Of a stretch of 24,000 nucleotides of DNA, positions 135-21,744 are shown one piece after another. The notes below the pieces were generated by a model that ran no database searches, was not told the origin of the DNA, and saw nothing but the letters and a program-made list of their open reading frames with translations. Made by a program: the position numbers and the translations under genes. The stretch is from Synechococcus sp. MIT S1220 (GTDB taxonomy: Bacteria; Cyanobacteriota; Cyanobacteriia; PCC-6307; Cyanobiaceae), in NCBI RefSeq assembly GCF_047303025.1, contig NZ_CP138939.1, positions 1,379,518 through 1,403,517 of the forward strand, in the 5' to 3' direction. Position 1 is the stretch's first letter; the number at the start of each line of letters is the position of its first letter.

Positions 135-155
135 TCCCTCGACCTAATTGGTTCT

Positions 156-190
156 GAGCCCTGACTTCAGTTCAGGGCTCCAGCTTTTTT
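156..190 (+). terminator. Stem-loop plus T-run after rbcS (intra-operon attenuator or partial terminator)
   Basis: GAGCCCTGA (156-164) pairs perfectly with TCAGGGCTC (172-180) across a 7-nt loop, followed by CAGCTTTTTT (181-190). A second small hairpin, GAAGGG (192-197) / CCCTTC (205-210), follows directly. Confidence 0.6.
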
Positions 191-237
191 CGAAGGGCAG
201 GAGTCCCTTCACTTCACGACGACACCCCTGGGCGGAC

Positions 238-2643: not shown

Positions 2644-2650
2644 TCGGCTG

Positions 2651-4414: not shown

Positions 4415-4416
4415 TC

Positions 4417-5036: not shown

Positions 5037-5088
5037 GGATCTCCACTCCTGTTCCTCCGCTTCCGTTCCGCATCCACCTCTTCTTTTT

Positions 5089-7578: not shown

Positions 7579-7587
7579 TCACCTGAG

Positions 7588-9078
7588 ATGTATTTGTCGC
7601 TCCTGCTTCTCATTCCCTTCCTCGGAGCTCTTGCTCTGATTATTTGGCCGGGCTCAGCCTCCAGCGCAAGGTTGCGTGAGCTGACCATCGTGTTGCTTGC
7701 CGTGCAATGCGTGGCCAGCTTTGCGCTGCTTTTGCCCTTTGATCCTGATCAGGCAGGGCTTCAGCTGGTGGAGCAAGCCCGCTGGGTCCATGTGATCGGC
7801 CTGGACTATGCCCTTGCGGTGGATGGTCTGTCCCTGCCCCTGGTGCTGATGAACGGGGTGCTCTGTTTGGTGGCGGCCGTTGCCTCCAGGGAAATCACGA
7901 ACAGACCCCGCATCTATTTCGCCTTGCTTTTGGTGATCAGCGGCGCTGTGAATGGAGCCTTTCTTGCCCAGAACCTCCTGCTCTTCTTCCTGTTCTACGA
8001 GCTGGAACTGATTCCTCTCTGGTTGCTCATCGCTGTCTGGGGAGGTGCGAATCGTGCCTATGCCGCCACCAAGTTCCTGATTGTGACGGCGGTGTCAGGG
8101 GTGTTGATCCTGTTGGCTTTTCTTGGGCTGGCCTTGGTGACCGGCACGATGGATTTCAGCCTGCGGCCGATCCTCTCCGGAGAGATGGGCATGACCAGTC
8201 AGTTGGTGTTGATGGGTGCTCTCCTGATCGGCTTCGGGATCAAAATTCCGCTGTTCCCCTTCCACACTTGGTTGCCTGATGCCCACACCGAAGCCTCAAC
8301 CCCTGTTTCGGTGTTGTTAGCTGGGGTCTTGCTCAAGCTTGGAACCTATGGCTTGCTGCGCTTCTGTCTTGGCTTGTTTCCAGAGGCCTGGCAGGTTGCA
8401 TCCCCATGGCTGGCTGGTTGGGCGGCGATTTCAGTGCTGTATGGATCTCTTGCTGCTATCGCTCAAACCGACATGAAGCGGATGGTGGCCTACAGCTCTG
8501 TGGGCCACATGGGTTATGTGCTCCTGGCTGCGGCCGCGGCCACTCCGCTCGGCTTGATGGGTGCCCTCTTTCAGATGGTCAGTCATGGCTTGATCTCAGG
8601 TGTTCTCTTCCTGGCGGTGGGCGTTGTCTACGCGCGCACCGGAACCCGTGATCTCAATGTGCTGCGTGGGCTGCTGAATCCCGAACGGGGTTTGCCACTG
8701 ACGGGGTCGTTGATGATCATCGGCGTTATGGCCAGTGCAGGTATTCCTGGTATGGCTGGATTCATTTCGGAATTTCTGATCTTTCGTGGCAGTCTCCAAC
8801 CGTTCCCACTGGCCACACTGCTCTCGATGGTTGGCTCTGGGTTGACGGCGGTTTATTTCCTGCTGCTCGTAAATCGTGCTTTCTTCGGGCGTCTGGCCAT
8901 TGCTGCCGGTGCTGTTGTCAATCCCCGTATCCTCCAGAGCGTCCCGTTGCGTGAACAGGTGCCAGCCATCGCACTCACCCTTGGCGTTCTTGTTCTCGGC
9001 CTGGCACCTGAACTGCTCTCTGGCCTCAGTGAAGCGGCCACCACAAGCCTCAGTCAGCTCAGCGGAGGGCTCTCATGA
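7588..9078 (+). CDS. ndhD4: NDH-1 subunit D, CO2-uptake type (NdhD4)
   Basis: 496-aa membrane protein with NuoM/NdhD motifs (KIPLFPFHTWLPDAHTEASTPVSVLLAGVLLKLGTYG, MKRMVAYSSVGHMGYV). Starts 9 nt after ndhF4. Its stop overlaps the chpX start (ATGA at 9075-9078). Confidence 0.85.
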   Translation: MYLSLLLLIPFLGALALIIWPGSASSARLRELTIVLLAVQCVASFALLLPFDPDQAGLQLVEQARWVHVIGLDYALAVDGLSLPLVLMNGVLCLVAAVASREITNRPRIYFALLLVISGAVNGAFLAQNLLLFFLFYELELIPLWLLIAVWGGANRAYAATKFLIVTAVSGVLILLAFLGLALVTGTMDFSLRPILSGEMGMTSQLVLMGALLIGFGIKIPLFPFHTWLPDAHTEASTPVSVLLAGVLLKLGTYGLLRFCLGLFPEAWQVASPWLAGWAAISVLYGSLAAIAQTDMKRMVAYSSVGHMGYVLLAAAAATPLGLMGALFQMVSHGLISGVLFLAVGVVYARTGTRDLNVLRGLLNPERGLPLTGSLMIIGVMASAGIPGMAGFISEFLIFRGSLQPFPLATLLSMVGSGLTAVYFLLLVNRAFFGRLAIAAGAVVNPRILQSVPLREQVPAIALTLGVLVLGLAPELLSGLSEAATTSLSQLSGGLS

Positions 9079-10220
9079 CCACCACAACCACCCGACCCCT
9101 CCAGGTGGAAGCTCCAACTCTTCCCGATCAGGAAGAGCTGATCCGGCGTCTGCTCAGTGACACGCCGCTCTTGAAAGACACATCAGATCACCTTCTCCAG
9201 GTGGTCAATGTGCTTGAGAGTTATGGGCTTGTTTTGGATGCGTACAGCCGAAACCTTGTGGATCAAGGTGAGAAGCAACTTCTCAACCCTTTCCCGGTGA
9301 TGCGCTTCTTCCATGAGGGCATCACGGTCCAGAGAATCTGGGACCATCTCCTCGGTGACCGCATCAATTTCGAATACGCCGAGTACTGCCAGAAGGCGAT
9401 GTTCTGGCATGGCACTGGTGGCCTGGATGCCTATCTGGACAGCGAGGCATTTCAGCAGGCCTGCCGAACGATCATCCAACGCAAATCCCGGCATGATCCT
9501 TTGCTGGCGATGACCAATCGCCTCTATCCAGGTTTCGCACCGGAGTCGATACGTTCCCTCACCACGATTTATTGCCTGGGGCTGTTCTGGCGGGTGATGA
9601 GCGATCTGTTCATCGACTTGGCCCGCCGTTACAGAATCAAGGAAGTGGTCAGTGTGAAAGATGTGGTGCATCACATCCGAGACGGCCTGGTGGCGGCAGC
9701 CGCTCATCCGATCACTTACAAAGTGTCGATCGCCGGAGAGGAGATCTGGGTGTTGCCACCGGAGGCAGGACTCACCTTCTTGGTGGATGTGGCCGTGCCG
9801 TATGTGGAAGCGGTCTTTTTCAGAGGAATGCCGTTTCTTGGCACGGTGTCGTACAACGCACAGGCACGTCAGATTTCACCGGACATCAGCGATTTCAAGT
9901 ACGGCGCGCTCTATGCCGATCCGATCCCCAGCATGGGTGCTGGTATCCCTCCAAGTTTGTGCATGAAAGATATGTACAGAAATCTGCCGGCGGAGTTGAA
10001 TCGTTGGTACGACGATCATGAGCGCGGTCAGGTTGATGTTCACGTGCAGATCTGCGTGAGTTTTCAGAAGTCGATGTTTTGTGTCACCAATGGTGCGATC
10101 GCTGGCACTATGCCCCATGTGCTGGATACGACGGATCCGGAGGAGCAACAGGCGAATCGTGCCTATGCCGAACATTGGACGAGTCGATTGATGGGTTGCA
10201 GAAGGGAAGCGTTGTTATAA
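9075..10220 (+). CDS. chpX: CO2 hydration protein ChpX/CupB (381 aa)
   Basis: A soluble protein following ndhF4-ndhD4, of ChpX-like length (ChpY is longer). The segments LNPFPVMRFFHEG..., YAEYCQKAMFWHGTGGLDAYLDSEAF and PPSLCMKDMYRNLP look ChpX/ChpY-like to me, from memory (no search run). The last ~9 codons (MGCRREALL) lie in the island junction and may not be ancestral. Confidence 0.85.
   Translation: MTTTTTRPLQVEAPTLPDQEELIRRLLSDTPLLKDTSDHLLQVVNVLESYGLVLDAYSRNLVDQGEKQLLNPFPVMRFFHEGITVQRIWDHLLGDRINFEYAEYCQKAMFWHGTGGLDAYLDSEAFQQACRTIIQRKSRHDPLLAMTNRLYPGFAPESIRSLTTIYCLGLFWRVMSDLFIDLARRYRIKEVVSVKDVVHHIRDGLVAAAAHPITYKVSIAGEEIWVLPPEAGLTFLVDVAVPYVEAVFFRGMPFLGTVSYNAQARQISPDISDFKYGALYADPIPSMGAGIPPSLCMKDMYRNLPAELNRWYDDHERGQVDVHVQICVSFQKSMFCVTNGAIAGTMPHVLDTTDPEEQQANRAYAEHWTSRLMGCRREALL
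10191..10211 (+). repeat. Left copy of the imperfect direct repeat flanking the low-GC island
   Basis: ATGGGTTGcaGAAGGgaAGCG at 10191-10211 versus ATGGGTTGGAAGGAGCG at 21496-21512. There are 17 matching nt, including an exact 8-mer, and two 2-nt indels. The left copy lies exactly where GC content drops. Confidence 0.45.
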
Positions 10221-10352
10221 AAGCCTTGATTATGTCGGCAACGATTATTGAGGTAAGAAGAAACGAATCCAATTTTCTACAATATCTACCAATAACTTCT
10301 CTATCTGAATGAACCCTGGATCAAAATTTCAAATTAATTTCACTTAAAATAG

Positions 10353-12314
10353 TTAAGCGTCGATAACCTTGATTTGGTCAGGCGCTGAGAAGATATTGCT
10401 GTCAAGCTGGAGCAATTCCTGCGTATTTGCTGTGAAGTTTCCAGCCGGAGCATACACCAACTTACTGGTATCTGTTGCAAAGGCCAACAGCCCTTGATTA
10501 CCAGTCGGGAAGACTTGGCTTTTGATCTCAGCATCAAGACCTACGATCAAAATGTTGGCCATTGAAGGTGAAGCCCCTGCCTCAATGATAGTTTTTTGCT
10601 GAACAGTCGCACCTGCGGTGTAATTTGGGAATGCCCCATCGTTGATCTGAATCAGGTCAAAGGAGCCAGCCTGTTTTGTGGCTGCATTTGCGCCCACATA
10701 CCCAGTAATCGTATCCCTGCTAGTCGTCGTTGTTTGACCCGTTAAATCAATCGTGTTTTGCACATTCTGATTGGGAGAAGTGATGATGTCCTGGCCAGTT
10801 CCTCCTGCAATCGTGGATTGTCCAGCGGTGGAACCCCTGAGATTGTCAATGCCAGGGCCACCGAGGAGATGGGAATCACCAGACAATCCTTCCACGGTGT
10901 CAGGGCCAAGAGTGCCCTCAATTTTTATACGGTCTCGATTTGTTGGCAGGCCTGAGTCAGCATTGTTTAAATTGACGCCGTGTTGAGATCTAATTTCGGA
11001 AAAATCATAATTTGCGATCCCAGGTGTACCCCAATTCTGATACGTTGTTGCGGCAGTGAAAGTGCTTGGTGAAAAAGTGAATGATTTTCCATTTGCGATT
11101 CCACTCAGATCCAACTCAGTGCTTCCATCATTTGATGCCTCAATTTTAAAATCTTCAATATTGATAAACTTGGCGCCAAAAGCGGTAAATATGCTATCCA
11201 GCTTGTTGAACTGGTTGCTTTTGATCACGATGGTGTCTTTGTCTGAGGGAGAAGGATCTTGAATGGTGTCATCGTTAATCGTTCCAATCTCACATGTAAT
11301 CGAATCGCTAAAGGTTGTGGTTTCGGGGGGGAGAATGTCTTTTCTGACAATTTTTGTAAGGGTGGCTCCTGCTTTCGTGATACTCAGGGTTAATGGAAGT
11401 GATGTTTGTTGTTTTTTATCCCCACTTTCAGTAGCAACAACGGTGAAACTATAGCTATCTTTGCTAGCGATGTTGAAATCATCCTGGGTGCTCACAGCGC
11501 CAGATGTGGCATCAATCTTGAATGAAGCTGCATCTGTTCCACTTAGTGAGAAGGTGACTTCCCCACTGTTATCTGTTGCAGATGCGTTATAAATTATGGA
11601 TCCTATGGGACTATCCTCTTTAATAGGGGTCACCGTTATTGGTGAAGTGAAGCTAGGAGGCAGGTCTTTATTGATTGAAAGAGTTAGCGGACTGCTTGTT
11701 GTTGAATGTCCTTCGCTGTCTGTGGCGATAACATTAAAGAGATAACTTGATTTTGCGTCATGATCAGTATTCTCCATAATCGCCACCTCACCATTATTGG
11801 GATTGATGGCTAAAAAATTGGCATCTTGTCCAGTTAATGAATAGATAAGGGGAGTATTGTTACCTGTGGCAGCGGCCAGATAGATGGCTGTGCCAGAGGT
11901 TGAGCCTTCAGTGATGGAATCAACTGATGTTGGCGAAGTAAAAACAGGACTAGTAGTCTCCTGGGTAATCAGAGTTCCTTGGGTAAAGAAAGAACGGGAG
12001 GAATTCTTCTTTTTTTTGGCAAGTCGAAATCTCTTAAATTGTTTGAGAGGAGAAAATGTAAATTCTTCTCCGCCTGTGAACAAATTAGCCTCATTGTTAT
12101 CGTTGAGACTTTCAAGGGTGATTTTCAGGCTAGCTTTTTTCCTCTTTCTCTTGCCTGGTAGCTCACCTTTCTCAAATCTAAAAACAAATCTCCCGTTGAA
12201 ATCACCAGTATGTGTAATTGTATCTAATATTTGATTTCCTTTTTTGTTGGAAAGCGTTGCTTTAAGGTCCGAATAATCTTTAAAGCCTTTCAGTTTTGCG
12301 ACAAGTTTCATCAT
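10353..12314 (-). CDS. Large secreted-type protein: Lys-rich N-terminal domain, two tandem cadherin-like domains, RTX-type Ca-binding repeats, C-terminal tail
   Basis: 653 aa. Two ~95-aa repeats are roughly one-third identical by eye: aa 123-216 (nt 11667-11948) and aa 219-314 (nt 11373-11660). They share the pattern FTSP..V..I.E.S..G..IY.A.AT....YSL.G.DA..F.I....G.V...Y.F.V.AT...L.L.I.K. GGxGxDxU nonapeptides LLGGPGIDNL and IAGGTGQDII lie at aa 476-512 (nt 10779-10889). The N-terminus (MMKLVAKLKGFKDYSD) has no hydrophobic signal peptide, which fits a C-terminally signalled type I secretion substrate. Confidence 0.6.
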   Translation of the reverse strand: MMKLVAKLKGFKDYSDLKATLSNKKGNQILDTITHTGDFNGRFVFRFEKGELPGKRKRKKASLKITLESLNDNNEANLFTGGEEFTFSPLKQFKRFRLAKKKKNSSRSFFTQGTLITQETTSPVFTSPTSVDSITEGSTSGTAIYLAAATGNNTPLIYSLTGQDANFLAINPNNGEVAIMENTDHDAKSSYLFNVIATDSEGHSTTSSPLTLSINKDLPPSFTSPITVTPIKEDSPIGSIIYNASATDNSGEVTFSLSGTDAASFKIDATSGAVSTQDDFNIASKDSYSFTVVATESGDKKQQTSLPLTLSITKAGATLTKIVRKDILPPETTTFSDSITCEIGTINDDTIQDPSPSDKDTIVIKSNQFNKLDSIFTAFGAKFINIEDFKIEASNDGSTELDLSGIANGKSFTFSPSTFTAATTYQNWGTPGIANYDFSEIRSQHGVNLNNADSGLPTNRDRIKIEGTLGPDTVEGLSGDSHLLGGPGIDNLRGSTAGQSTIAGGTGQDIITSPNQNVQNTIDLTGQTTTTSRDTITGYVGANAATKQAGSFDLIQINDGAFPNYTAGATVQQKTIIEAGASPSMANILIVGLDAEIKSQVFPTGNQGLLAFATDTSKLVYAPAGNFTANTQELLQLDSNIFSAPDQIKVIDA

Positions 12315-12504
12315 TTTTCAAGTTTCTAGAACCTTGCTCCTTTTTAGCTGTGAAACGAGCTTGTGTCCTCTGCGCTTAAGAATCAATAGCGATCAATTCT
12401 GAACTTGTTCCACTCGTTACAGAGTAGTCGTTCCTTCAGGGGTGGAGAGTGACCACAAAGGATCAAATCAGCGACTTGTTCGCCAGCCAGGAGGTATGAG
12501 GGGT

Positions 12505-12666
12505 ATGGACGAAATCTCAGGACGCGGACTCGGATTGTTTCAAGGGGTCGGATCTCTGTTGAAAGTCACGTTCCACGGCAGATTTGAGAAGCTTCTTTGC
12601 ACTTTTCTATCTGAAGCGATGGCTCTGCTGCGTTACGCCATCGTTATGAGCATCCGGCTGAACTGA
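12505..12666 (+). CDS. Candidate small ORF (53 aa), hypothetical; may instead be non-coding
   Basis: AGGAGG at 12489-12494 lies 10 nt upstream of the ATG at 12505. Translation: MDEISGRGLGLFQGVGSLLKVTFHGRFEKLLCTFLSEAMALLRYAIVMSIRLN. The frame is open from a GTG at 12442 (74 codons). No family recognised. It lies in a ~52% GC patch of an otherwise AT-rich intergenic region. Confidence 0.2.
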   Translation: MDEISGRGLGLFQGVGSLLKVTFHGRFEKLLCTFLSEAMALLRYAIVMSIRLN

Positions 12667-12780
12667 TCACTCCCAGTTGATTTTGGTAGCAAATTTCGAA
12701 TCAACCTTCGACGCAAATATGATGAATAAAATAAGAAGCCAACGAGGTTGCACGAGTTTGTATCATATGACGAAGGCAGC

Positions 12781-12807
12781 GATTATTTTTTTGTCAAAAT
12801 AATAATC
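12781..12807. promoter_or_regulatory. AT-rich inverted repeat / Fur-box-like operator candidate upstream of the TonB-dependent receptor
   Basis: GATTATT (12781-12787) and AATAATC (12801-12807) are exact inverted repeats with a 13-nt spacer. AATAATAATC (12798-12807) matches 9 of 10 positions of the AATGATAATC core of the Fur consensus GATAATGATAATCATTATC. The best 19-mer alignment is only 11/19. It ends 16 nt before the receptor start. Confidence 0.25.
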
Positions 12808-12822
12808 TATTGAAATGAGGCC

Positions 12823-15039
12823 TTGGGTAATAATTTACTTCGCTTGATTTTAGCTTTTTTTCAGTCCTCTTCTTCGTTGCCGATTGCCTTTGCCTATCTC
12901 TGTATTGTTTTTACTCCAATCCCTTCATTCGCAGAAGAAGAATTGAGAATTATCACCGTTGGCGAACAGCTTGATGACCCTAGTTACGAGCAACCTGCCA
13001 GTTTTACGGTGATTGATCGTGAAGAAATGGACCGGCGAGGGGTGATTAATTTTAAGGATTTGTTTCGCTACCAACCTGGGATTGAGGTGCGCCGAAGTAG
13101 GCGGTATGGAATCGAAGATATCAATATTCGCGGTTTGGATGGCAATCGCATTCTGTATGAGCTGAATGGTGTTCGCTTGCCGGAACGGTTTGAGTTTGGC
13201 CCTTTCCGTCAGACGCGAGGCCAGTGGATTGACTTATTGAATATTGGTGACGTTGATATTATCCAAGGCCCTGCATCAGTCCTGTATGGAGATGGGGCCC
13301 TTGGAGGTGTTGTCTCTTTTTCATCCCTTCATCCAGAAGTATTTTTAGGAGAGGATGATCGTGCTGCTCAAGCGGTTGTCATGCTCAGCTCAGAGAACAA
13401 CAGCGTGTCTGAACTTGTTCGATTTGCAGCTGAGGATTCAAACGGAATTATGGGTTTGTTGAGTGTCAGTCGTTCTGACTCAGAAGAGCCCCATCCGATC
13501 GCTGATTCTGATTTGGTTAATCGCCAAAACAATGACGGTACTGGTTTTAATGCACAAATCATGATTCCATTTTCCGAAGATTTGAAATTTCGATTAAATA
13601 CAGTTGGTTCCAGGCAAATTACAAGAACAACAATTGGCCAAGGTAATTTGCCATCAGGAGAATGGGGCTACGTCGTGAATCAAGATAAGGAAACAATCAC
13701 AAATCAACTTTGGCAACTCGTCGCTGCGTTGGAATTTGATTCCTTGATGGAGAATCCACTTTTTTCAGGGATGAAGTTTAATATCTATTTTCAAGATGCC
13801 TCTCAAGTGGATCAGAGGTTTGAGCATCGCACGACCACGTCTGCAGAGTTGGAGCGGAATGCAAAGACCACGGCAGTGAGTCAAGTTTCTGGTTTTAATC
13901 TTTCACGGAAACAGGAAGTGTTATTTGGCGACCTGATTCACGAGCTAAATTATGGAGTTGATTATTCAAGAACCTTCAATTCGCGCCGCAGAGATCGCAT
14001 TCAGACAAATGTAGAAGATGGTTCGAAGACCAGAGAGTTGCCGCTTGGCAACTTTCCGGTCAAAGATTATCCTGACTCACTGACGAATCGTCTTGGAGCA
14101 TTTTTACAAGACACGTTGATAATTGATTCCCTAAAATTGATTGCAGGGCTCCGTTATGAATCATATTTGATGAATCCACTGTCAGATTCAACTTTTGAAA
14201 AAAATGGAGCATTGGCTGGTAGCTCCGATGCAATCACTCCAACTTGGCGCTTGGCTGCACTATGGAGTTTGGATGAATCACATGTTATTTGGATGAATTA
14301 TAATCGATCATTCAGAATGCCTCTTTATAGTGAAATTAACAGTGGATTTACGAATTTGAATTCAGGGTATCAGACAATCAGTAATCCAGATCTTAAATCT
14401 GAAACTGGCGATGGACTTGAATTAGGTTTGAGAGCGCATTATGAGCATTTTAAATATAGTTTTACTGGGTATTACAACAGATACAGTAATTTCATCGAAG
14501 CAGGGCGATTTGTTGGCACGAATTGTGAATTTGAGCAAGGCCGATGTGTTGCACAATATCAAACTGTCAACGCAGAGCAAGCTGTCACCTATGGTGTTGA
14601 GGGTAGTGCTGAGTACTCAACTGTTCCGGATGGCTATGGCTTGAAGATTCGATCAGGGTTCAATTATACGGTTGGCAATGATCTGGAGATCAACCAGCCA
14701 CTTACAAGCATTGATCCTCCCAAGGCAATCGTTGCTGTTGGATATCATGAGCCTGATGATGGCTGGTCGGCTGAGTTGATTGGCACAGCATTCGCACGTG
14801 CCCGGGTTCCAGCTGATAGTGAACTTTTCATCCCTTCTTCTTATATTCGCTGGGATTTACTGGTTTCCTGCGCCGTTGGCGCAAACTTTAAAATAAACTT
14901 TGGAGTTCTCAATCTATTTGATCACAGGCAGTATTCATATGCTGATACAAAGTATATCTTAGATACTGGATATCGAGATATGAGCGGGTTTTCATTACCA
15001 GGTCGTGCCTATCAAGTTGGTTTCACTCTGCGCTTGTAG
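12823..15039 (+). CDS. TonB-dependent outer-membrane receptor (738 aa)
   Basis: TTG start. Signal-peptide-like N-terminus ending in PSFA/EEE. TonB-box-like LRIITVG. Plug-domain motifs (FKDLFRYQPGIEV, INIRGLDGNRILYELNGVRL, IDIIQGPASVLYGDGALGGVVSF). Barrel motifs (FRMPLYSEIN, ISNPDLKSETGDGLELG) and a terminal GRAYQVGFTLRL. The last residue is Leu rather than the usual aromatic. Confidence 0.85.
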   Translation: MGNNLLRLILAFFQSSSSLPIAFAYLCIVFTPIPSFAEEELRIITVGEQLDDPSYEQPASFTVIDREEMDRRGVINFKDLFRYQPGIEVRRSRRYGIEDINIRGLDGNRILYELNGVRLPERFEFGPFRQTRGQWIDLLNIGDVDIIQGPASVLYGDGALGGVVSFSSLHPEVFLGEDDRAAQAVVMLSSENNSVSELVRFAAEDSNGIMGLLSVSRSDSEEPHPIADSDLVNRQNNDGTGFNAQIMIPFSEDLKFRLNTVGSRQITRTTIGQGNLPSGEWGYVVNQDKETITNQLWQLVAALEFDSLMENPLFSGMKFNIYFQDASQVDQRFEHRTTTSAELERNAKTTAVSQVSGFNLSRKQEVLFGDLIHELNYGVDYSRTFNSRRRDRIQTNVEDGSKTRELPLGNFPVKDYPDSLTNRLGAFLQDTLIIDSLKLIAGLRYESYLMNPLSDSTFEKNGALAGSSDAITPTWRLAALWSLDESHVIWMNYNRSFRMPLYSEINSGFTNLNSGYQTISNPDLKSETGDGLELGLRAHYEHFKYSFTGYYNRYSNFIEAGRFVGTNCEFEQGRCVAQYQTVNAEQAVTYGVEGSAEYSTVPDGYGLKIRSGFNYTVGNDLEINQPLTSIDPPKAIVAVGYHEPDDGWSAELIGTAFARARVPADSELFIPSSYIRWDLLVSCAVGANFKINFGVLNLFDHRQYSYADTKYILDTGYRDMSGFSLPGRAYQVGFTLRL

Positions 15040-15964
15040 TTGTTGGCTGTTTCTGCGCGCCTGTCTGAGCCGGCAAGGTGTAACGCTGCTTTTCTTGTTT
15101 CTCAATTGCTTTTTGGTGCTTGTCACTCCCTTTGATCACGATGCTGTAACTGACTGGTACCCGCGCACCACCGTCGATGGCTTTGAATCGTGATCGACGT
15201 CCAGCATCCAACGCTGCATTGTCGATTTCAGGATTACCGCTCGATCGTTCCAGTTGTACGTTTTGCACCCGTCCATTGCTGTTGATTGTGATCAGAACTC
15301 TGGGTTCTCCTTCAATGCCTCGTCGCAGTGCACGTTTGGGGTATCGAGGTTTTGGGCAAGACAGACATTCCACAACGCGGCGAGGTTTGACCTTGCTTGT
15401 TTCCCCCACCTGGATTGACGACGTCTGCGGCGAGTGTTGCTGTCCAGTGGTCATCCCCTGCTTGACATTGTTGGATTGTTCTTGATCCTGTTTCCTCTTA
15501 GAGCTGGATGGCTTCTCACGAGTCGACGCGATGGCCGACGATGGTTGTTCCTGCAGTGGTTTGGTATCTGAACCATGGCGCTTGCTGGAATGTTTGGGCG
15601 ACTGTCTCAGGATTGGAGCTGGGGTCCGGCTAAGTTGCGGGGCTGCAGTGGACGTGGGCGCAGGAGTTGGTTGTTCAGCGTTGGGTGGTTGTATCCGATC
15701 AGATAACGCAACAGCCTTTTGTTGGATCGGTTCGTCTTGCTCATTCTCTTGCCGATTGGCTTGCTCGGTGATGGCCTGATCTTCTGGTCGTTGTTTCGCT
15801 TCCTTCGTACTCGGTAAAGCAGCCAACTCAATGATCACGACGTTGGATTGGTTTTTCGGGAGTAAGGCATACTCTCTTTTTTCTCTGATCAAGAAGAGCA
15901 GAAGCGCATGAATGGAAATTGAAATGATTAAATAAAAGATTACATTGGATTTTAAATGTTTCAT
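15023..15964 (-). CDS. tonB: TonB energy transducer
   Basis: N-terminal membrane anchor (VIFYLIISISIHALLLFLI), a long Pro/Gln/Ser/Lys-rich spacer, and a C-terminal TonB_C-type domain (PRYPKRALRRGIEGEPRVLITINSNGRVQNVQLERSSGNPEIDNAALDAGRRSRF). Last gene of the exbB-exbD-tonB string. Its 3' end overlaps the receptor 3' end by 17 bp, convergently. Confidence 0.8.
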   Translation of the reverse strand: MKHLKSNVIFYLIISISIHALLLFLIREKREYALLPKNQSNVVIIELAALPSTKEAKQRPEDQAITEQANRQENEQDEPIQQKAVALSDRIQPPNAEQPTPAPTSTAAPQLSRTPAPILRQSPKHSSKRHGSDTKPLQEQPSSAIASTREKPSSSKRKQDQEQSNNVKQGMTTGQQHSPQTSSIQVGETSKVKPRRVVECLSCPKPRYPKRALRRGIEGEPRVLITINSNGRVQNVQLERSSGNPEIDNAALDAGRRSRFKAIDGGARVPVSYSIVIKGSDKHQKAIEKQEKQRYTLPAQTGAQKQPTTTSAE

Positions 15965-15974
15965 TATTTGGCGG

Positions 15975-16397
15975 TCATTTTCTGGCTTTTGTCTGAGGGC
16001 TTGTGACTAGGCCAATGGATTCAAATTCTGCTAATTTAGCCTTTTCAATGATACTGAAAATGACACCATATTCAATGGTCTGCTCGGCATCAATGAGTAG
16101 TTTCTTTGATGCATTTTGCTGCGTGATGATGCTGAGATCGTTGAGGAGTGTGGTTTGATTGCTTGGTTCGCTATTGATAAAGAGCTCTCCATCCTTTTTG
16201 ATGCTGACAATGACGTCATCCGAGCCGATCGTTGTGGTAGTCGTCGCCTTTGGTCGATTGATCTCCACTACTCTGTTGCTACTGAGTATCAGGCTGGAAA
16301 GAACAAAAAAAAGAAGTATGGCGAAAAGTACGTCAATCATGGGAAGAATATTGATGGTCAGATCGTTCTCCTGGTCAAATTCGTTGCCAAAATCCAT
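15975..16397 (-). CDS. exbD: ExbD/TolR-family biopolymer transport protein
   Basis: 140 aa with INILPMIDVLFAILLFFVL, a single N-terminal transmembrane helix, followed by a periplasmic domain. Lies between exbB and tonB. Confidence 0.8.
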   Translation of the reverse strand: MDFGNEFDQENDLTINILPMIDVLFAILLFFVLSSLILSSNRVVEINRPKATTTTTIGSDDVIVSIKKDGELFINSEPSNQTTLLNDLSIITQQNASKKLLIDAEQTIEYGVIFSIIEKAKLAEFESIGLVTSPQTKARK

Positions 16398-16403
16398 GGT
16401 GAG

Positions 16404-17045
16404 TTAATGTTGAATTAAAAACTGTTCTTCAAGGCTGGTTGCAAACAATTGAAGTTCGTGTTTTTGCGTTCGACTGAAACTTCGAAATAAGTTAGTAAAA
16501 GCAAGCGTAATCATTGCAATCACCAATCCAATAGCAGTTGAAACAAGAGCCTCACTGATCCCGGATATTACTACCTCTGCATTCTCCAAAGGTTGTTCAA
16601 GCCCCAGCCCTTCGAAGGAACGTATCAGACCCAGAACGGTACCCAGCAGACCCAGTAATGGCGAAATCGCGACGATGGTTGACAACGTTGCGTCGTATCG
16701 ACGCAACGGAGGACTTACACGTTGAAAACCAATTTTGATACGCCGCTGAAACGATTCAAAATCTCTTGCCTTGGTTTGAATGACAGAGCGATAGAAGATC
16801 ACCAACGGATGATTCCGTGGCTCAAAATTCAATACCGTTTCCTCTGGATAAGAAGTATGGAAATGGGCCAAGAGATTTTCTCTGACGGCTGTTTGCCTGG
16901 TAAGAGTCGTCATCCAGAAGACGAGTCGTTCAAGAATCAATGCCAGTGCAATGATGGAAACGAATCCCAGGGGGATCGAAACTACGCCGCCGATGTTGCT
17001 GAGATCCATTGCGGATGCAAAATAAAGAGCCTCAGACCAATACAT
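16404..17045 (-). CDS. exbB: ExbB/TolQ/MotA-family proton-channel protein
   Basis: 213 aa with three predicted transmembrane segments and the C-terminal family motif ISGISEALVSTAIGLVIAMITLAFTNLF. Directly upstream of exbD. Confidence 0.8.
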   Translation of the reverse strand: MYWSEALYFASAMDLSNIGGVVSIPLGFVSIIALALILERLVFWMTTLTRQTAVRENLLAHFHTSYPEETVLNFEPRNHPLVIFYRSVIQTKARDFESFQRRIKIGFQRVSPPLRRYDATLSTIVAISPLLGLLGTVLGLIRSFEGLGLEQPLENAEVVISGISEALVSTAIGLVIAMITLAFTNLFRSFSRTQKHELQLFATSLEEQFLIQH

Positions 17046-17083
17046 GTCCTGAGGCGCCTGGATGCAGAGACTATCTGCCTATT

Positions 17084-18370
17084 TTAGATGTCGGCTCCAA
17101 ATGCCCAATCACTGGGAGATAATTTAGCCACGATGTCGTAGCTGTCACCATGAGGCTTAATGATATAAGCCGTTCCTTGAGGATCAGGGTAGATATTTGT
17201 GGTGCCTTCAAAGGGATCGTCATGACCGACAAGAACAGTATTTTTCTTTTTTGGTGTTTTTGATAACATCGGTGCAATTCTGTCGTGATATATATCTAAT
17301 TGCTCGTCAGTATAGTCTTCGTAAGGCAAGAAGTTTAAATCATCAATGGCTTTCCCTTTGCCGAATGCTATTTGCGCTGTGTCGATGGCTCGTTGATATT
17401 GACTATTGCGGACGTTTCCGATCACAATGTCGTTGGCTTTGATGCCTTTTTTAATGTCGTTTGCTTCTTGAATCCCCTGGGCGCTCAGATTCCTTTGGGT
17501 TGATGGATCATTCAAATCCAGATTTGGATCAGCTTGATCGGCATAATCCGTTTCTGTTGTGGTATGTCGTAGATAGATTACATGGCCCCCTTTTTTCAAT
17601 TTCTTAAGCAATTTCTTATCGCTCAACTTGTTCTCGAAGGCATCGTTGTTGAACTCCGCTTCTGAGAAATTATTGGGTTTGCTCTTGGGACTGCCAAAAA
17701 TATCGTCTCCATTCAGATCGATGGAATGTTTCTTTTCCATCTTATGAATCCATTTGTTTGATGCTGCTTCCTCTTGTGCAGAAGCCATTCCTTCTTCCTC
17801 GCTCATTGCGAAGGCTTGCTTTCTGAATTTGTTTTTTTCATCCTTAAAAACAACGTAAGTTGTCCTTTTGTTTTTGATAATACCGGTCACTTCACCTTCC
17901 CTTGATCCACCCGGACGCGGAGCGTCGAACAGGCTGGTATAGATATTTTTCTCGTCATTCATCCACAGTGGCTTGAACATTTTGGGTTCTGCCATGCGTG
18001 CAAGACCGTATTCGGCTAGGCCGATGCGATGGGTTCCACCCAGGTAGTACAGGCCCATTCCTGAGTTACCGCGTCGCCCGTCGTGATAAGTGACGTAGAC
18101 AGGATCTCCATCACCAGCGCCTGGAGCCCCCCCAGCACCTGGAGGCCCCCCAGCACTTGGAGGCCCTCCAGCACTTGGAGATTCTCCACCCGAATTTCCA
18201 GCCGCTGGAGGTCCTGCAGAGGGAGGAGTGGATTCATCGTCTTTTTCGTCGTCTTCAGTTGCATTACAGAACTCGAAGCCATCCACAGGAGGATGTCCAT
18301 CAGGAAGGCAACCACCTCCATCAGGTGAAACGGGTGGATGGCCTTCAGGTAATGTGATGCCTGTAGACAT
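17084..18370 (-). CDS. Multidomain protein: duplicated GHPPV/Cys motif, Gly/Pro repeat linker, unknown middle domain, C-terminal histidine-phosphatase (His_Phos_1/PGAM-like) domain
   Basis: 428 aa. The C-terminal domain (aa ~262-420, nt 17111-17587) carries VIYLRHTTTE (RHG-type catalytic motif), NLSAQGIQEA, NSQYQRAIDTAQI and LVGHDD (second catalytic His). The N-terminus is MSTGITLPEGHPPVSPDGGGCLPDGHPPVDGFEFC followed by (PSAGG)n. No signal peptide is evident. It is the first gene of the minus-strand string ending in exbB-exbD-tonB, with a 38-nt gap to exbB. Confidence 0.55.
   Translation of the reverse strand: MSTGITLPEGHPPVSPDGGGCLPDGHPPVDGFEFCNATEDDEKDDESTPPSAGPPAAGNSGGESPSAGGPPSAGGPPGAGGAPGAGDGDPVYVTYHDGRRGNSGMGLYYLGGTHRIGLAEYGLARMAEPKMFKPLWMNDEKNIYTSLFDAPRPGGSREGEVTGIIKNKRTTYVVFKDEKNKFRKQAFAMSEEEGMASAQEEAASNKWIHKMEKKHSIDLNGDDIFGSPKSKPNNFSEAEFNNDAFENKLSDKKLLKKLKKGGHVIYLRHTTTETDYADQADPNLDLNDPSTQRNLSAQGIQEANDIKKGIKANDIVIGNVRNSQYQRAIDTAQIAFGKGKAIDDLNFLPYEDYTDEQLDIYHDRIAPMLSKTPKKKNTVLVGHDDPFEGTTNIYPDPQGTAYIIKPHGDSYDIVAKLSPSDWAFGADI
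18114..18185. repeat. 18-bp imperfect tandem repeat x4, in frame within the phosphatase-family gene
   Basis: On the + strand: CCAGCGCCTGGAGCCCCC / CCAGCACCTGGAGGCCCC / CCAGCACTTGGAGGCCCT / CCAGCACTTGGAGATTCT. On the - strand these encode the hexapeptide units ESPSAG-GPPSAG-GPPGAG-GAPGAG. Confidence 0.85.
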
Positions 18371-18682
18371 TGAATTGAAAACACTTAGTCATATTTATGC
18401 TTAAGGACCCCCAAGAAGAATGCCACACTTTATTTCACAGCCGCATGTATAAAAATTTACGGATTGAATATTGATTTCGCCTCGTATTGGCTTTTTGTAG
18501 CATGACTCTGGTCAACTGCATTTGCTCTAAGTCAATCAGGTTGCTCCCTTTATATAAAGAGCCTCGAGCCATCGATGAAATCGTTACTTCAAACTCTTTT
18601 CATTGGGTGGGTCTGGTCCAGATTCCTGGCATTGAGGATTGAAATTGCAAAGGATACTCGTAATCACATTGCCGGTTTGTCC

Positions 18683-19663
18683 ATGAAATTCATTTCATTT
18701 CTTGGATTGCTGTGGATATTAGCCATTGTTTTTGTTTTATCATTATGTGTCGGTGATTCGCCGATTGGGTTTGAGGACCTGTGGGATTATGTCTCAGGAA
18801 CTTCCTCCTCAGAGACAACTGTCTTGGTGATTCGTGATATTCGCTTGCCTCGCACCTTGGCAGCCTTGTTGACGGGATCTGCTCTGGGCGTTTCAGGGGC
18901 AATGCTTCAAGGAATGCTTCGTAATCCGTTGGCCAGTCCATTCTTGCTCGGCATTTCTTCGGGCTCAGGAGTCTGTGTCGTTATTCTTTTTTCCTTGAAT
19001 AGTTTGGCTTATTGGATCCCACTGGGTGCATGGTTGGGTGCTGTGGTGTCGGCGTTAATCGTTTTTTGTATTGCTTATGATCAAAAGAGGATTTCCCTGG
19101 AACGATTGATTCTCTCAGGAGTCGCTGTCAGTAGTGTTTTGGGATCTGTGCAAGCTATTTTTCTCTTGCGCTCGGATGATACACGCATTCAGAATTCTTT
19201 AACCTGGTTGTCCGGAACATTGGCTGGCCGTGAGTGGGGCGATTTAACTTTTACATGGATTCCAATCGTCGTATGTTTATTGTGCTCCTTTGTTTTCGCT
19301 AAACAACTTAATTTGGCATTGCTTGATGATGATACCAGCCGATCCTTAGGCCTGTCTTTAACACGACTCAGGATTTTGATTGGTGTTTGCGCAACTCTGC
19401 TGACATCCTGTTCTGTATGTATTGCGGGACTGGTCGGTTTTGTCGGTTTGGTGATTCCTCACATAGCACGTTTACTCTGCGGTGGTAATTTTGTTTATGT
19501 TTTGCCATTCTCTGGGGTCTTGGGCGCACTCACTGTTGTAGTAGGTGATCTGATCGCAAGAATGTATCTCTGGGAGCTTCCAGTCGGTATTGTGACAGCA
19601 CTATTTGGTTCGCCATTTTTTATCTATCTATTGAGAAAACGCCGAATGGAAGGGAGTGTCTAA
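18683..19663 (+). CDS. ABC importer permease, FecCD/BtuC/HmuU family (single permease gene)
   Basis: Family motifs IRLPRTLAALLTGSALGVSGAMLQGMLRNPLASPFLLGISSGSG, GLVGFVGLVIPHIARLL and ELPVGIVTALFGSPFFIYLL. The ORF is open from the ATG at 18575. The ATG at 18683 (MKFISFLGLLWILAIVFVLSLCVGD...) gives a 326-aa protein with the usual family architecture. Confidence 0.85.
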   Translation: MKFISFLGLLWILAIVFVLSLCVGDSPIGFEDLWDYVSGTSSSETTVLVIRDIRLPRTLAALLTGSALGVSGAMLQGMLRNPLASPFLLGISSGSGVCVVILFSLNSLAYWIPLGAWLGAVVSALIVFCIAYDQKRISLERLILSGVAVSSVLGSVQAIFLLRSDDTRIQNSLTWLSGTLAGREWGDLTFTWIPIVVCLLCSFVFAKQLNLALLDDDTSRSLGLSLTRLRILIGVCATLLTSCSVCIAGLVGFVGLVIPHIARLLCGGNFVYVLPFSGVLGALTVVVGDLIARMYLWELPVGIVTALFGSPFFIYLLRKRRMEGSV

Positions 19664-20421
19664 TGGAGGATCTATCTTTATCTGACGTCTCTTATTCTAT
19701 AAATTCTAATTCAATCCTTGAGAAGATTTCGTTTTCTGTTGGTCCTGGGGATTGGCTTTGTATCGCTGGATGCAATGGTTCAGGAAAATCCACGTTGTTG
19801 AGATTGATGGCAGGTTTAATTGGTCCTAGTCATGGTTGCATTCAATTTGGGGGCACAGCTTTTAAGGACTTGCCTGATAAAGATAAAAAAATTTCGATTC
19901 TCTCCCAGCGTTCCAATGTCAATGCATGCTTGACGGTTCAAGATCTTGTGTGTTTAGGACGTTATCCCTATTTGCCGAGCTGGGGTGTCCGTTTTTCCGA
20001 GGCTGATTGGGAGCAGGTTAGTTATGCCATCGATTTTGTTGGTTTGAATGATCTGCGTGATCGTTCGCTTGATTCATTGTCTGGTGGAGAAAGACAGCGA
20101 GCTTTTTTAGCCCTTTCTTTGGCACAGAATGGATCCATTCTGCTTTTGGACGAACCTACCAATCATCTGGATATTGTTGCACAAAATCAGATTTTGAATC
20201 TTTTGGAGAAAATGGCCAATTCCGGAAAGATTATTGTTTCCGTATTCCATGATCTGAATCATATTTCGAGGTATTCCTCTCATCTTGCCTTGATGCGCCA
20301 AGGTCAGTTGCTTGAGTTCGGTCCCACGGATCATGTGTTTCGTTCACAGTCGTTGAGTGAAACATTTGGTCTGGCTATTCGTGTTGTTGAGCATGAGGGG
20401 CAACGGTGCGCTCTGTATTGA
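19663..20421 (+). CDS. ABC importer ATPase, FecE/FhuC/BtuD/HmuV family
   Basis: Walker A GCNGSGKST, signature LSGGERQR, Walker B ILLLDEPTNHLD, H-loop VFHDLN. The start overlaps the permease stop by 1 nt (TAATG at 19661-19665). Confidence 0.9.
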   Translation: MEDLSLSDVSYSINSNSILEKISFSVGPGDWLCIAGCNGSGKSTLLRLMAGLIGPSHGCIQFGGTAFKDLPDKDKKISILSQRSNVNACLTVQDLVCLGRYPYLPSWGVRFSEADWEQVSYAIDFVGLNDLRDRSLDSLSGGERQRAFLALSLAQNGSILLLDEPTNHLDIVAQNQILNLLEKMANSGKIIVSVFHDLNHISRYSSHLALMRQGQLLEFGPTDHVFRSQSLSETFGLAIRVVEHEGQRCALY

Positions 20422-20461
20422 GACATTACTTGTTGGATAGCTCAATCGTGGCTGGTCACGG

Positions 20462-21412
20462 ATGAATATATGGTGTTGTTTTTATCACATTGTCATGCTT
20501 ATTTTGTTCGATCGGGGGTCAGTTATTGGTATAAAATTAATTCCATTGGTTTATGAAATTGTGGCTTATTTGTATCCATTCCTTTCGGTTTTGCTCGTTT
20601 TCTTTTGGCTTCCACCTTTGCGGGCGCAAGGGGAGATCGACATCAGTCGTTCTGGCCGACAGGTGAGCCGTGTGGTTGCCTTGACTTCACTGTCTGCTGA
20701 CATGGTTGTGTCACTGGATCCTGGAGTCCTGGTTGGTGTTCCAGGCACTTCTCTGACCAACAACGACTCGCGTTTCAAAGGTATGAAGCGCATTTCTTCT
20801 GGCAGAAGTCAGCCAAGCCTGGAGGCCATTGTGGCCCTTAAGCCTGATCTTGTGGTGGGCGCAGATGGTTTCCACTCCAAGATCTTGAATGGTTTGAATG
20901 GCTTAGGCATTGCAACTCTTTCTTTAAGGATTGATCGCTGGAATCGTCTGGAGGAAGCGGCTCAGTTGCTGCGTCAGCGTATTTCCAATTCCGATGTTCT
21001 CGAACAAAAACTGGCTGACATCTGCCCTGCTGTCTCTGGTGTTGCGAAGCCGTCGCGATCGCGTGTGTTGATTCTTGTTGGGGTGTCGCCCAAGCTTTCG
21101 CCTTCTTCAGATAGTTGGTCTGGGTCTCTGCTTGCCAGGCACGGTCTAATCAACGTCACTCAGGGGCTTTCGGGGGGGAGTGAGTTTTCGGGCTATATCA
21201 CCATGTCAAACGAGCGTTTGTTGACCGTTGATGCTGACACGGTTCTTGCTGTAAACCCTTCAGGTGGTGCAAAACAATTGCGACAATTAATTCGGCAATT
21301 TTTACCTAAAGTCAAGTCAAAAAATGTTGTCAAAATGGATTATTATGGATTGATCAATCCTGGAAGTTTAGGAAGCATTGCCTCTGCTTGTAAGCGTCTT
21401 CGGGCTTTGTAA
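20462..21412 (+). CDS. Periplasmic substrate-binding protein, cluster A / FecB-BtuF-HmuT type
   Basis: RVVALTSLSADMVVSL..., LEAIVALKPDLVVGA... and VLILVGVSP... are typical of metal-chelate binding proteins. The start is uncertain: ATG at 20462, ATG at 20495 or GTG at 20561. The last gives VAYLYPFLSVLLVFFWLPPLRAQG, a plausible signal peptide. Confidence 0.7.
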   Translation: MNIWCCFYHIVMLILFDRGSVIGIKLIPLVYEIVAYLYPFLSVLLVFFWLPPLRAQGEIDISRSGRQVSRVVALTSLSADMVVSLDPGVLVGVPGTSLTNNDSRFKGMKRISSGRSQPSLEAIVALKPDLVVGADGFHSKILNGLNGLGIATLSLRIDRWNRLEEAAQLLRQRISNSDVLEQKLADICPAVSGVAKPSRSRVLILVGVSPKLSPSSDSWSGSLLARHGLINVTQGLSGGSEFSGYITMSNERLLTVDADTVLAVNPSGGAKQLRQLIRQFLPKVKSKNVVKMDYYGLINPGSLGSIASACKRLRAL

Positions 21413-21495
21413 ACATATGGCTGGAGGCGGAGTGGATGTTGTTCAAGCTTGCTCGTCTCACTCTTGTAGGTTAAAGACCAGCGGTATGGCCTCAT

Positions 21496-21512
21496 ATGGG
21501 TTGGAAGGAGCG
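21496..21512 (+). repeat. Right copy of the imperfect direct repeat flanking the island
   Basis: ATGGGTTGGAAGGAGCG begins at the ATG of the acRAF-like gene. See the left copy at 10191-10211. Confidence 0.45.
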
Positions 21513-21744
21513 CAGGAGGCCGGTGTGTCTTGAAAGGCGCTATGAGTTTGAGAGCTACAACGCGACACGGGATTTCCTGGATCGGCTTGGGCTTCATAGT
21601 GAGGCCACGCAGCGCTTTCCGGATATCAGCTTTGGTCGAACATATGTGAACATCACACTCCGTCCTGAGGATGACGGAGATTCCGCCCAGATAGCTGATG
21701 CGGATCATTCGTTCGCGGCTGAGATCGATGCCCTGCTCGATTGA
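21496..21744 (+). CDS. Pterin-4a-carbinolamine-dehydratase-like protein lacking the catalytic histidines (acRAF-type Rubisco assembly factor candidate)
   Basis: 82 aa. [47 protein letters not shown] aligns with the PCD fold, but the DHHPE motif reads QRFPD and the downstream STH reads RPE. Position next to cbbX and the cso genes fits the alpha-carboxysome-associated PCD-like family. Confidence 0.7.

Follow-up and report, generated by a model that had tools for sequence, protein, structure and literature searches.

How did an 11.3-kb block of TonB-dependent uptake genes come to lie inside the CO2-concentrating gene supercluster of Synechococcus sp. MIT S1220, where did it come from, and what might it import? 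The window analyzed here is a stretch of 24,000 nucleotides (assembly GCF_047303025.1, contig NZ_CP138939.1, positions 1,379,518 to 1,403,517), in which this block separates the CO2-uptake gene chpX from the acRAF-cbbX pair. A previous account of this DNA, drawn up from its letters alone (the sequence-only reading), had taken the block for an insertion at a polymorphic site and had proposed a synteny comparison as a check. We surveyed 80 chpX loci of species-representative genomes with 10-kb flanks, mapping all window proteins onto each, and found a tight empty site, in which acRAF follows chpX after only 19 to 139 nt, in 65 of the 71 informative reference loci. Of the 20 loci classed as marine-like (chpX identity of 76% or more), 19 were informative and 13 of these were empty, with a spacer of 38 to 48 nt, while the 60 remaining loci, from non-marine cluster-5 and other genomes, had acRAF 19 to 139 nt after chpX in 52 of 52 informative cases. 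Inserts of 1.3 to 8.3 kb lay between the two genes in four marine-like loci (L003, L007, L011, and L016), and in L001 and L005 chpX runs into island genes before the contig ends. Since the chpX-acRAF junction is normally tight, the 11.3 kb found in the window are extra DNA, and positions 10221 to 21495 are an insertion between chpX and acRAF-cbbX, within the alpha-carboxysome/CO2-uptake supercluster. Both the insertion and the polymorphism of the site were thus borne out: against 65 empty loci stand at least six occupied reference loci, to which contigs L081 to L091 and L100 have to be added.

Composition also sets the island apart from its surroundings. Its mean guanine-plus-cytosine (GC) content is 0.447, compared to 0.587 in the left and 0.585 in the right flank, and the sliding profile that the sequence-only reading had suggested computing, taken here in 500-nt windows, runs at 0.53 to 0.63 up to about 10000, at 0.38 to 0.54 over 10001 to 21750, and at 0.55 to 0.63 beyond. 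GC content at third codon positions (GC3) falls into two non-overlapping ranges, 0.37 to 0.49 for all nine island genes and 0.58 to 0.68 for all 11 flank genes. The announced GC step is therefore real and lies where it had been placed, but the contrast of 62 to 67% versus 32 to 45% given for it was exaggerated, the true gap amounting to about 14 points.

Deviant composition and presence/absence polymorphism at a conserved site, the two marks of a flexible genomic island, are both observed here. The island resembles those described in marine Synechococcus by Dufresne et al. (2008; PMC2441476) in its deviant oligonucleotide composition, its niche-related accessory cargo, and its strain-variable presence; unlike these, it has no adjoining tRNA or mobility gene and sits in a strongly conserved core operon region. 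The class of island is already known: it is the picocyanobacterial "siderophore uptake" cluster of low-iron waters (Hogle 2022, PMC9122953; Dore 2023, PMC10119275). The same literature (PMC9122953, PMC10119275) describes such clusters as rare and flexible, in agreement with the earlier claim that TonB clusters are scarce in picocyanobacteria and reside on variable islands.

The limits of the insertion were defined by comparing the junction sequences of 13 empty and six occupied sites. On the left, the edge is the stop codon of chpX, TAA (10218-10220), and the island begins directly 3' of it; on the right, the edge lies between the stop codon of the binding-protein gene (21412) and a TAGGTT motif at 21467-21472. 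At empty sites chpX ends in CTC CTC TAG followed by GTTT, TAGGTT there being the stop codon plus the first bases of the 38- to 48-nt spacer. As the window chpX has its own TAA instead, and TAGGTT stands 24 nt before acRAF, the inserted DNA starts at the stop codon.

Pfam and NCBIfam gene calls upheld the nine recognizable genes of the sequence-only reading as well as its description of the cargo as TonB-dependent uptake genes with no relation to carbon fixation (Table 1). A small open reading frame (ORF) at 12505-12666, which it had listed as doubtful, found no support; the region is kept only in the near-identical relative L081 and not in distant island copies.

Table 1. Features of the window and, for island proteins, identity of the type B counterpart (the TonB cluster occupying the same junction in other Synechococcus; window compared with L007, L001, and L100).
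Feature	Coordinates	Strand	Description	Support	Type B identity to window
Alpha-carboxysome genes, left flank	148-5622	+	host composition, GC3 0.59-0.64		
csoS2	148-2643	+		Pfam CsoS2_M	
csoSCA	2651-4414	+		Pfam CsoSCA_N/cat/C	
csoS4A	4417-4785	+		Pfam EutN_CcmL	
csoS4B	4785-5036	+		Pfam EutN_CcmL	
BMC-domain shell protein	5089-5622	+		Pfam BMC	
CO2-uptake NDH-1 module, left flank	5734-10220	+			
ndhF	5734-7578	+		Pfam Proton_antipo_M/N	
ndhD	7588-9078	+		Pfam Proton_antipo_M/N	
chpX	9075-10220	+		Pfam ChpXY 5e-149	
Island, whole	10221-21495		11,275 bp, nine genes, GC 0.447	composition and empty-site comparison	
Cadherin/RTX-like accessory protein	10353-12314	-	653 aa	Pfam Cadherin 1.8e-17	
Divergent intergenic region, cadherin gene to receptor gene	12315-12822		508 bp		
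TonB-dependent outer-membrane receptor	12823-15039	+	738 aa; TTG is the longest-ORF start; relatives called at 718-745 aa		26-28%
Energizing module	15023-17045	-	tonB, exbD, exbB		
tonB	15023-15964	-		Pfam TonB_C PF03544, NCBIfam tonB_Cterm	not alignable (no match)
exbD	15975-16397	-		Pfam ExbD PF02472	34%
exbB	16404-17045	-		Pfam MotA_ExbB PF01618	41%
hyp428	17084-18370	-	428 aa, without Pfam match	NF004841 245 bits (cutoff 178)	56-59%
Inner-membrane import module	18575-21412	+	permease, ATPase, binding protein		
FecCD-family permease	18575-19663	+		Pfam FecCD PF01032 3.5e-93	67-68%
ABC ATPase	19663-20421	+		Pfam ABC_tran PF00005 1.4e-29	54-55%
Class-III periplasmic binding protein	20462-21412	+		Pfam Peripla_BP_2 PF01497 7e-14	59%
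TAGGTT motif	21467-21472	+	24 nt upstream of acRAF start; right-hand limit of inserted DNA		
Right flank	21496-23834		host composition, GC3 0.58-0.68		
acRAF-like Pterin_4a protein	21496-21744	+		Pfam	
CbbX, Rubisco activase-type AAA+ protein	21698-22633	+		Pfam	
CLC channel, convergent	22569-23834	-		Pfam	

All seven components of a TonB system (receptor, TonB, ExbB, ExbD, permease, ATPase, and binding protein) are present and contiguous. The receptor combines a Plug domain (PF07715, 3e-24, aa 55-163) with a 22-strand-type beta-barrel (PF00593 TonB_dep_Rec_b-barrel, 5e-43, aa 274-698), and a candidate TonB box, EELRIITVG, can be read by eye after a signal-peptide-like segment ending in SFA. 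The three domains of the energizing module (PF03544, PF02472, and PF01618) all exceeded their gathering scores. NCBIfam matches of the import module were spread over FhuB, BtuC, FecCD, and heme models, none above cutoff; the true starts of the permease and the binding protein probably lie about 20 to 32 codons downstream, as in the L081 gene calls. The receptor and tonB genes are convergent and overlap by 17 nt at their 3' ends (15023-15039), an arrangement kept in L081 and L083.

Taken as a whole, the locus is probably a flexible, mosaic iron-import island of marine cluster-5 Synechococcus, free of mobility machinery and spread by recombination through its flanks. The outer-membrane receptor, of a HutA/PhuR-like subfamily, would bind an organically complexed iron substrate; the island's own TonB-ExbB-ExbD would transduce the proton-motive force to open the receptor plug; and the periplasmic binding protein would pass the substrate on to the FecCD-type permease and the ATPase, which would import it. 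The histidine-phosphatase-domain and cadherin/RTX-like proteins travel along as accessories. Iron as the substrate class, and this function in MIT S1220, are predictions. Clusters of this type have been described from 37% of 42 Synechococcus genomes of clade 5.1A and from a minor share of Prochlorococcus; they are anticorrelated with dissolved Fe, and in Prochlorococcus Fe deficiency induces them (PMC9122953, PMC10119275). In addition, the transcript of a phuR-annotated Synechococcus receptor was upregulated under Fe limitation in the field (PMC9723758). The cluster is further linked to iron because homologs of its phosphatase domain sit in iron neighborhoods in Acaryochloris and in Leptolyngbya PCC 7376.

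As to the compound imported, a siderophore or another metallophore has, in our judgment, somewhat better than an even chance. Genes for nonribosomal peptide synthetases, polyketide synthases, or NRPS-independent siderophore synthesis (NRPS, PKS, or NIS genes) were absent from the window, according to the ORF list and Pfam. Heme or another iron porphyrin, taken up by a HutA/PhuR-type receptor and an ABC heme importer and stripped of its iron by the heme oxygenase of the host phycobilin pathway, is a possible but less likely substrate. The two best NCBIfam models of the receptor are indeed heme/hemoglobin models, TIGR01786 (265 bits) and TIGR01785 (259 bits), with twice the score of the siderophore model (125 bits), but it stays below both cutoffs (323.75 and 316.85, respectively), and the TIGR01786 family includes non-heme receptors too; the type B receptors of L007 and L001 do pass a curated heme-family cutoff (355 to 357 versus 324). 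In a search of the PDB, the heme receptor PhuR (8the) was the sole near-full-length solved relative (1e-52). The receptor carries FRMP and NPDL motifs, 20 residues apart, which resemble the FRAP and NPNL boxes, but inspection of the sequence found no His between them, whereas a conserved His is expected between these boxes in HemR/HmuR-type receptors. The best NCBIfam match of the binding protein is IsdE, although weak (46 bits).

The nearest annotated relatives of the receptor are cyanobacterial receptors of the "hemoglobin/transferrin/lactoferrin family." Of the same class are HutA1 and HutA2 of Anabaena, which support growth on heme, HutA2 adjoining an ABC transporter but having no heme oxygenase of its own (PMC10792254). 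The island contains neither a heme oxygenase nor a heme-chaperone gene, which Hogle et al. (PMC9122953) used as an argument against heme. Like the window receptor, Anabaena HutA (Alr2153/Alr3242, PMC10792254) and Pseudomonas aeruginosa PhuR (8the) are of the TIGR01785/01786 type by best score, and HutA2 (PMC10792254) shares with it the clustering with an ABC importer. The window receptor differs from the annotated cyanobacterial HutA-type members, to which it is at best about 35 to 37% identical, in scoring below the family cutoffs, and it is devoid of the N-terminal extension or AMIN domain that many of them have.

Salvage of corrinoids (vitamin B12) by a BtuB-like receptor and a BtuCDF-like importer, the phosphatase then acting as a CobC-like alpha-ribazole phosphatase, is highly improbable. 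On a BtuC model the permease does reach 229 bits, alpha-ribazole phosphatase belongs to the histidine-phosphatase fold family (6nru, rank 43), and the binding protein is labeled "iron siderophore/vitamin b12" in the Dore data set; the receptor, however, reached only 58 to 61 bits on BtuB models with cutoffs of 600 to 836, the BtuF score was 21 bits, and neither a cobalamin riboswitch nor any Rfam match at an E value of 1 or lower was detected. The iron neighborhoods of the phosphatase homologs also speak against corrinoids, as does the response of this cluster type to iron in culture and its tracking of low iron at sea (PMC9122953).

Two further genes accompany the uptake system. The first, hyp428, encodes a disordered Pro/Gly/Ala-rich N terminus, a small beta domain (aa 92-196), and a histidine-phosphatase domain (aa ~237-428), in which 23 homologs have the RH and GHD motifs in common and R268, H269, and H383 are invariant. 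Its AlphaFold2 (AF2) model (predicted local distance difference test score, pLDDT, of 71) matched SixA, RosC, and phosphoserine phosphatase (PSP) in Foldseek; this search confirmed the histidine-phosphatase fold but pointed to no particular substrate and left the middle beta domain unmatched. An 18-nt tandem unit (CCAGCGCCTGGAGCCCCC and variants), present in four copies at 18114-18215 within hyp428 (minus strand), codes for the Pro/Gly/Ala-rich low-complexity linker, and it is probably through this repeat that the homologs vary in length from 408 to 491 aa. Many cyanobacteria have stand-alone homologs of the phosphatase domain, of about 250 aa and about 50% identity. In Acaryochloris thomasi (L093:6642-13820) the homolog lies between exbB-exbD and a set of AraC, TonB-dependent receptor, and binding-protein genes; in Leptolyngbya sp. 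PCC 7376 (L092:5164-8798) it stands beside two ferritins, Bfd, and a multicopper oxidase; and an additional copy is found in the flavodoxin cassette of L100. These recurrent iron-gene neighbors point to a putative, so far uncharacterized, family of iron-linked phosphatases.

The second accessory protein harbors, besides two cadherin repeats (aa ~114-313), RTX-like GGxGxD repeats in its C-terminal part (aa ~465-545); its matches in the PDB were cadherin-23/CELSR and, weakly, the RTX part of CyaA, and it is probably a secreted or surface-exposed Ca2+-binding protein. The gene is present in L081, L089, and L091 and absent from L083 to L087. In the type B island of L007, the same interval between chpX and the receptor contains an RTX/serralysin-type repeat protein (L007:11233-12303, minus strand), and the two proteins are not alignable with each other. 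It is conceivable that Ca2+-binding repeat proteins serve surface substrate capture in both island types.

We next compared the island with its closest relatives. The receptors nearest to that of the window, which we refer to as type A, are 94, 88, 76, 70, and 50% identical to it and make up a small group, almost all from metagenome assemblies; their contigs have the island gene order of the window. Wherever such a contig reaches the chpX-acRAF site, the site is shared: this is the case for L081, a 3.1-Mb contig of NCBI assembly GCA_047285265.1, and for L083 to L087, Tara contigs in which, with the cadherin gene absent, the insert measures 8.8 kb and has a GC content of 0.43 versus 0.60 in the flanks; L088, L089, and L091 are partial contigs. 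A metagenome scan for further relatives added just four short contigs. The island is thus not specific to one strain, as might have been supposed, since L081, whose flanks diverge from those of the window by 2 to 3%, has it too, with matching synonymous divergence in most genes. Synonymous divergence (dS) between the two is 0.07 to 0.11 for the flank genes and, equal to this, 0.08 to 0.11 for the cadherin gene, tonB, exbB, hyp428, and fecCD. With five island genes at the level of the flanks, the island was therefore already present in the common ancestor of the window strain and L081. The receptor, exbD, ATPase, and binding-protein genes have a dS of 0.17 to 0.22, about twice that of the flanks, which may reflect local recombination tracts or weaker codon constraint, and nonsynonymous divergence (dN) is raised throughout the island.

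Type B clusters were found at the same junction in the single-amplified genomes (SAGs) AG-679-B05 (L007) and AG-683-C23 (L001), a metagenome-assembled genome (MAG) (L005), and the metagenome scaffold L100. This is the cluster published for Synechococcus clade 5.1A (SAGs such as AG-679-B05; Hogle 2022, PMC9122953; fecDCAB-tonB-exbBD eCAGs of Dore 2023, PMC10119275), and it shares with the window the seven functional components, a low GC content relative to the host, the chpX-acRAF site (in L007, L001, L005, and L100), a phosphatase-domain protein, and an inner-membrane module that is 54 to 68% identical. Unlike in the window, the phosphatase gene lies on the opposite side of the receptor module, and a shorter RTX-repeat gene takes the place of the cadherin/RTX gene. 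The receptors are not orthologous: that of the window is 26 to 29% identical to the SAG (type B) and Prochlorococcus-type receptors and forms a separate clade. In a neighbor-joining (NJ) receptor tree, all 100 of 100 bootstraps united type B with the Prochlorococcus type, and none of the 100 made exclusive sisters of types A and B. The island is therefore a mosaic, in which a common inner-membrane and phosphatase module is joined to either of two non-orthologous receptor and energizer modules. In the same explanation that we hold probable as a whole, the inner-membrane module and phosphatase gene of the window are orthologs of those in the published Synechococcus cluster, and its receptor-TonB-ExbBD module comes from a separate, deeply diverged cyanobacterial lineage. 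All three picocyanobacterial receptor types are nearer to other cyanobacterial receptors (35 to 40%) than to proteobacterial ones (24 to 31%).

The sequence-only reading had likened the composition of the island to that of Prochlorococcus or other low-GC marine bacteria. The Prochlorococcus cluster (Pro-eCAG_015, e.g., MIT9201), which we recovered as Tara contigs L098 and L099, resembles the window in its component set and presumed low-iron role, but it has a GC content of 0.27, its proteins are only 28 to 49% identical, it has no phosphatase-domain gene, and it adjoins a photolyase gene rather than the carboxysome cluster. Its gene order (permease, ATPase, receptor, binding protein, tonB, exbB, exbD), which matches the published fecDCAB-tonB-exbBD, also differs from that of the window. 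Tetranucleotide frequencies correlated with those of the island at 0.56 for the Prochlorococcus type, compared to 0.90 and 0.85 for other Synechococcus islands and 0.75 for the island's own flank. A Prochlorococcus donor was thus rejected on GC content, gene order, protein identity, and tetranucleotide signature alike. Other low-GC marine bacteria are an unlikely source as well, the next tier of receptors, at about 37% identity, being those of Leptolyngbyaceae, Nodosilinea, and other cyanobacteria. These data point to a pool of cyanobacterial genes that circulates among the islands of Synechococcus, and not to Prochlorococcus or a heterotroph as the proximate donor. The label Syn_GI036 of Dore 2023 covers a broad module of many strain islands and is uninformative for the chpX-acRAF site.

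Cargo of other kinds occupies the junction elsewhere. In Synechococcus AG-686-F08 (L011:1873-6515) and MAG CUG2171 (L016:11128-17009), genes for an alpha/beta hydrolase, a Pyr_redox_2 oxidoreductase, and a flavodoxin lie between chpX and acRAF. As flavodoxin is the classic iron-stress stand-in for ferredoxin, the site gathers iron-limitation genes of several kinds. MAG Parasynechococcus Co_bin1 (L003:6957-10131) has a 383-aa gene of unknown family at the junction and a gene for a TauD-family dioxygenase between acRAF and cbbX, showing that the latter pair can be split in some genomes. Across L011, L016, and L100 the GC content of these inserts is low, at 0.38 to 0.45 (about 0.38 to 0.41 in L011 and L016), L003 (0.54) being the exception. 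That the junction is a recurrent hot spot, with other iron-stress cargo in other strains, belongs to the explanation given above and shares its probability.

Such cargo bears on an alternative history, in which the island was ancestral to marine Synechococcus at this site and was lost from most lineages instead of being inserted. The same site is occupied in lineages that are mutually saturated at synonymous sites, mobility genes and attachment-site (att) repeats are absent, the island co-diverges with its flanks between the window and L081, and the island identities between the window and L083 (45 to 83%) are of the order seen for a flank gene under weak constraint (CLC, 59%). We nevertheless regard this history as unlikely: the site is empty in all 52 informative non-marine cluster-5 loci and in most of the marine ones, the marine spacer being tight and conserved at 38 to 48 nt; the GC3 of the island, 0.37 to 0.49, has not shifted toward the 0.58 to 0.68 of the host despite the very long residence implied; other strains carry unrelated cargo at this junction; and the two receptor modules are non-orthologous.

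A hint of how the insertion may have been brought about comes from L100 (L100:1-20507; metagenome scaffold SUHA22-1_SAMN20336528 scaffold_550), which appears to carry a tandem double island. Its order is chpX, a type B cluster, acRAF, a fusion of cbbX (aa 1-117) to chpX (aa 51 to the end), a second cassette, acRAF, and cbbX, the second cassette comprising genes for a ferredoxin, a photosystem II (PSII)/IsiA-like protein, a histidine phosphatase, a hydrolase, an oxidoreductase, and a flavodoxin. DNA identity between the duplicated flanks is 93 and 90%. This structure is what would be expected if a circularized foreign fragment had integrated by a single homologous crossover. As the sequence-only reading had noted, integrase, transposase, tRNA, and long terminal repeats are missing: domain searches (Pfam and NCBIfam) found no integrase, recombinase, or transposase domain in any ORF tested, and the window holds no tRNA and no long terminal direct or inverted repeat. 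Because such mobility features are absent and the flanking genes are highly conserved, homologous recombination through the flanks is the most economical mechanism, and we infer that acquisition and exchange most likely occurred in this way.

Self-mobilization as an integrative element, such as a tycheposon-like element, or delivery by phage, as in a cyanophage-borne cassette, is by comparison very improbable. A GC content below that of the host and insertion exactly at the 3' terminus of a gene would fit such an element, as would the remnant resembling the chpX terminus that L100 keeps at the far end of its second island (ranked first among about 7,900 positions), but the window has no integrase, recombinase, transposase, tRNA, or flanking repeat, and the chpX-terminus remnant is undetectable there and in five other inserts. 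In addition, blastn, tblastx, and tblastn found no flank-gene fragments inside the island, and no relative of the receptor occurs among 2.9 million viral contigs. To the eye, the right junctions recall the end of chpX, but a displaced chpX 3' end or att-like duplication was rejected for the window: it was not distinguishable from shuffles by Smith-Waterman alignment (P > 0.2), and a position weight matrix (PWM) of the chpX terminus (last 18 coding bases) ranked the right junction just 253rd. All that survives of such traces is the short TAGGTT motif and, in L100, the second island.

Several observations weigh against an iron-import island spread through its flanks. The receptor misses the curated cutoffs of every NCBIfam subfamily, even those of its two best, TIGR01785 and TIGR01786. 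The best 19-mer matches to the E. coli-type Fur box in the intergenic regions were no better than those in shuffled sequence, a cyanobacterial Fur site possibly being different. Between the window and L083 synonymous sites are all saturated, so that deeper dating is uninformative and ancient vertical presence followed by losses would be compatible with it. Recombination through the flanks is deduced from the absence of alternatives, L100 being the sole direct hint, and the first base of the L100 scaffold coincides with the fusion joint ACCTGGTGGATCAGGGC, a possible assembly artifact.

A bolder interpretation, which we consider rather unlikely, is that the chpX-acRAF junction is a dedicated hot spot for the swapping of iron cassettes, that type A imports another iron compound, and that surveys have missed it. 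The cassettes swapped would be the two non-orthologous TonB import cassettes and the flavodoxin/oxidoreductase/IsiA-like cassette; at times they would stand in tandem and travel together with parts of the conserved flanks. The substrate of type A would be heme or an unknown metallophore. Metagenomic surveys relying on the type B or the Prochlorococcus receptor as marker would have passed over type A. Iron limits picocyanobacterial production over large ocean areas, and the share of cells using organically bound iron is now estimated from one receptor marker gene; a second, divergent receptor module would mean uncounted "consumers," perhaps of a different iron compound. The recurrent junction also offers a concrete locus at which to study the spread, through homologous recombination, of islands that lack mobility genes. 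The main message is modest, namely, the correct detection of a known adaptive island class with its donor attribution corrected. Beyond the published descriptions go the exact site in the carboxysome/CO2-uptake supercluster and its recurrent use for different iron-stress cassettes, the divergent type A receptor-TonB-ExbBD module, and the conserved histidine-phosphatase partner.

Within the divergent intergenic region upstream of the receptor, alignment of the island copies, whose receptors are 50 to 94% identical, revealed a single conserved stretch. This block, TTGC..GTAnnAAATGA..CAAAATAA, lies at ~12745-12800, 25 to 80 nt upstream of the receptor start, and is a likely promoter or operator, but it is no Fur box of the E. 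coli type. Rfam, including riboswitch models for the receptor leader, gave no match in the window even at an E value of 1 or lower, and a scan for promoters and terminators returned counts equal to those of shuffled sequence, with nothing at the island edges and no terminator-like site between the binding-protein gene and acRAF. As the last operon of the island reads into acRAF-cbbX without a terminator, one may speculate that this pair receives read-through from it and that Rubisco-activase expression may thereby be under iron-responsive read-through.

The genes flanking the island are of host composition (Table 1). In the naming of Dufresne et al. (2008; PMC2441476), ndhF4, ndhD4, and chpX form the low-affinity CO2-uptake set. 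The ndhD, ndhF, and cbbX proteins are 87 to 91% identical across lineages. On the right, the 3' ends of cbbX and of the convergent CLC-channel gene overlap by 65 nt (22569-22633), and they do likewise in L081 and L083.

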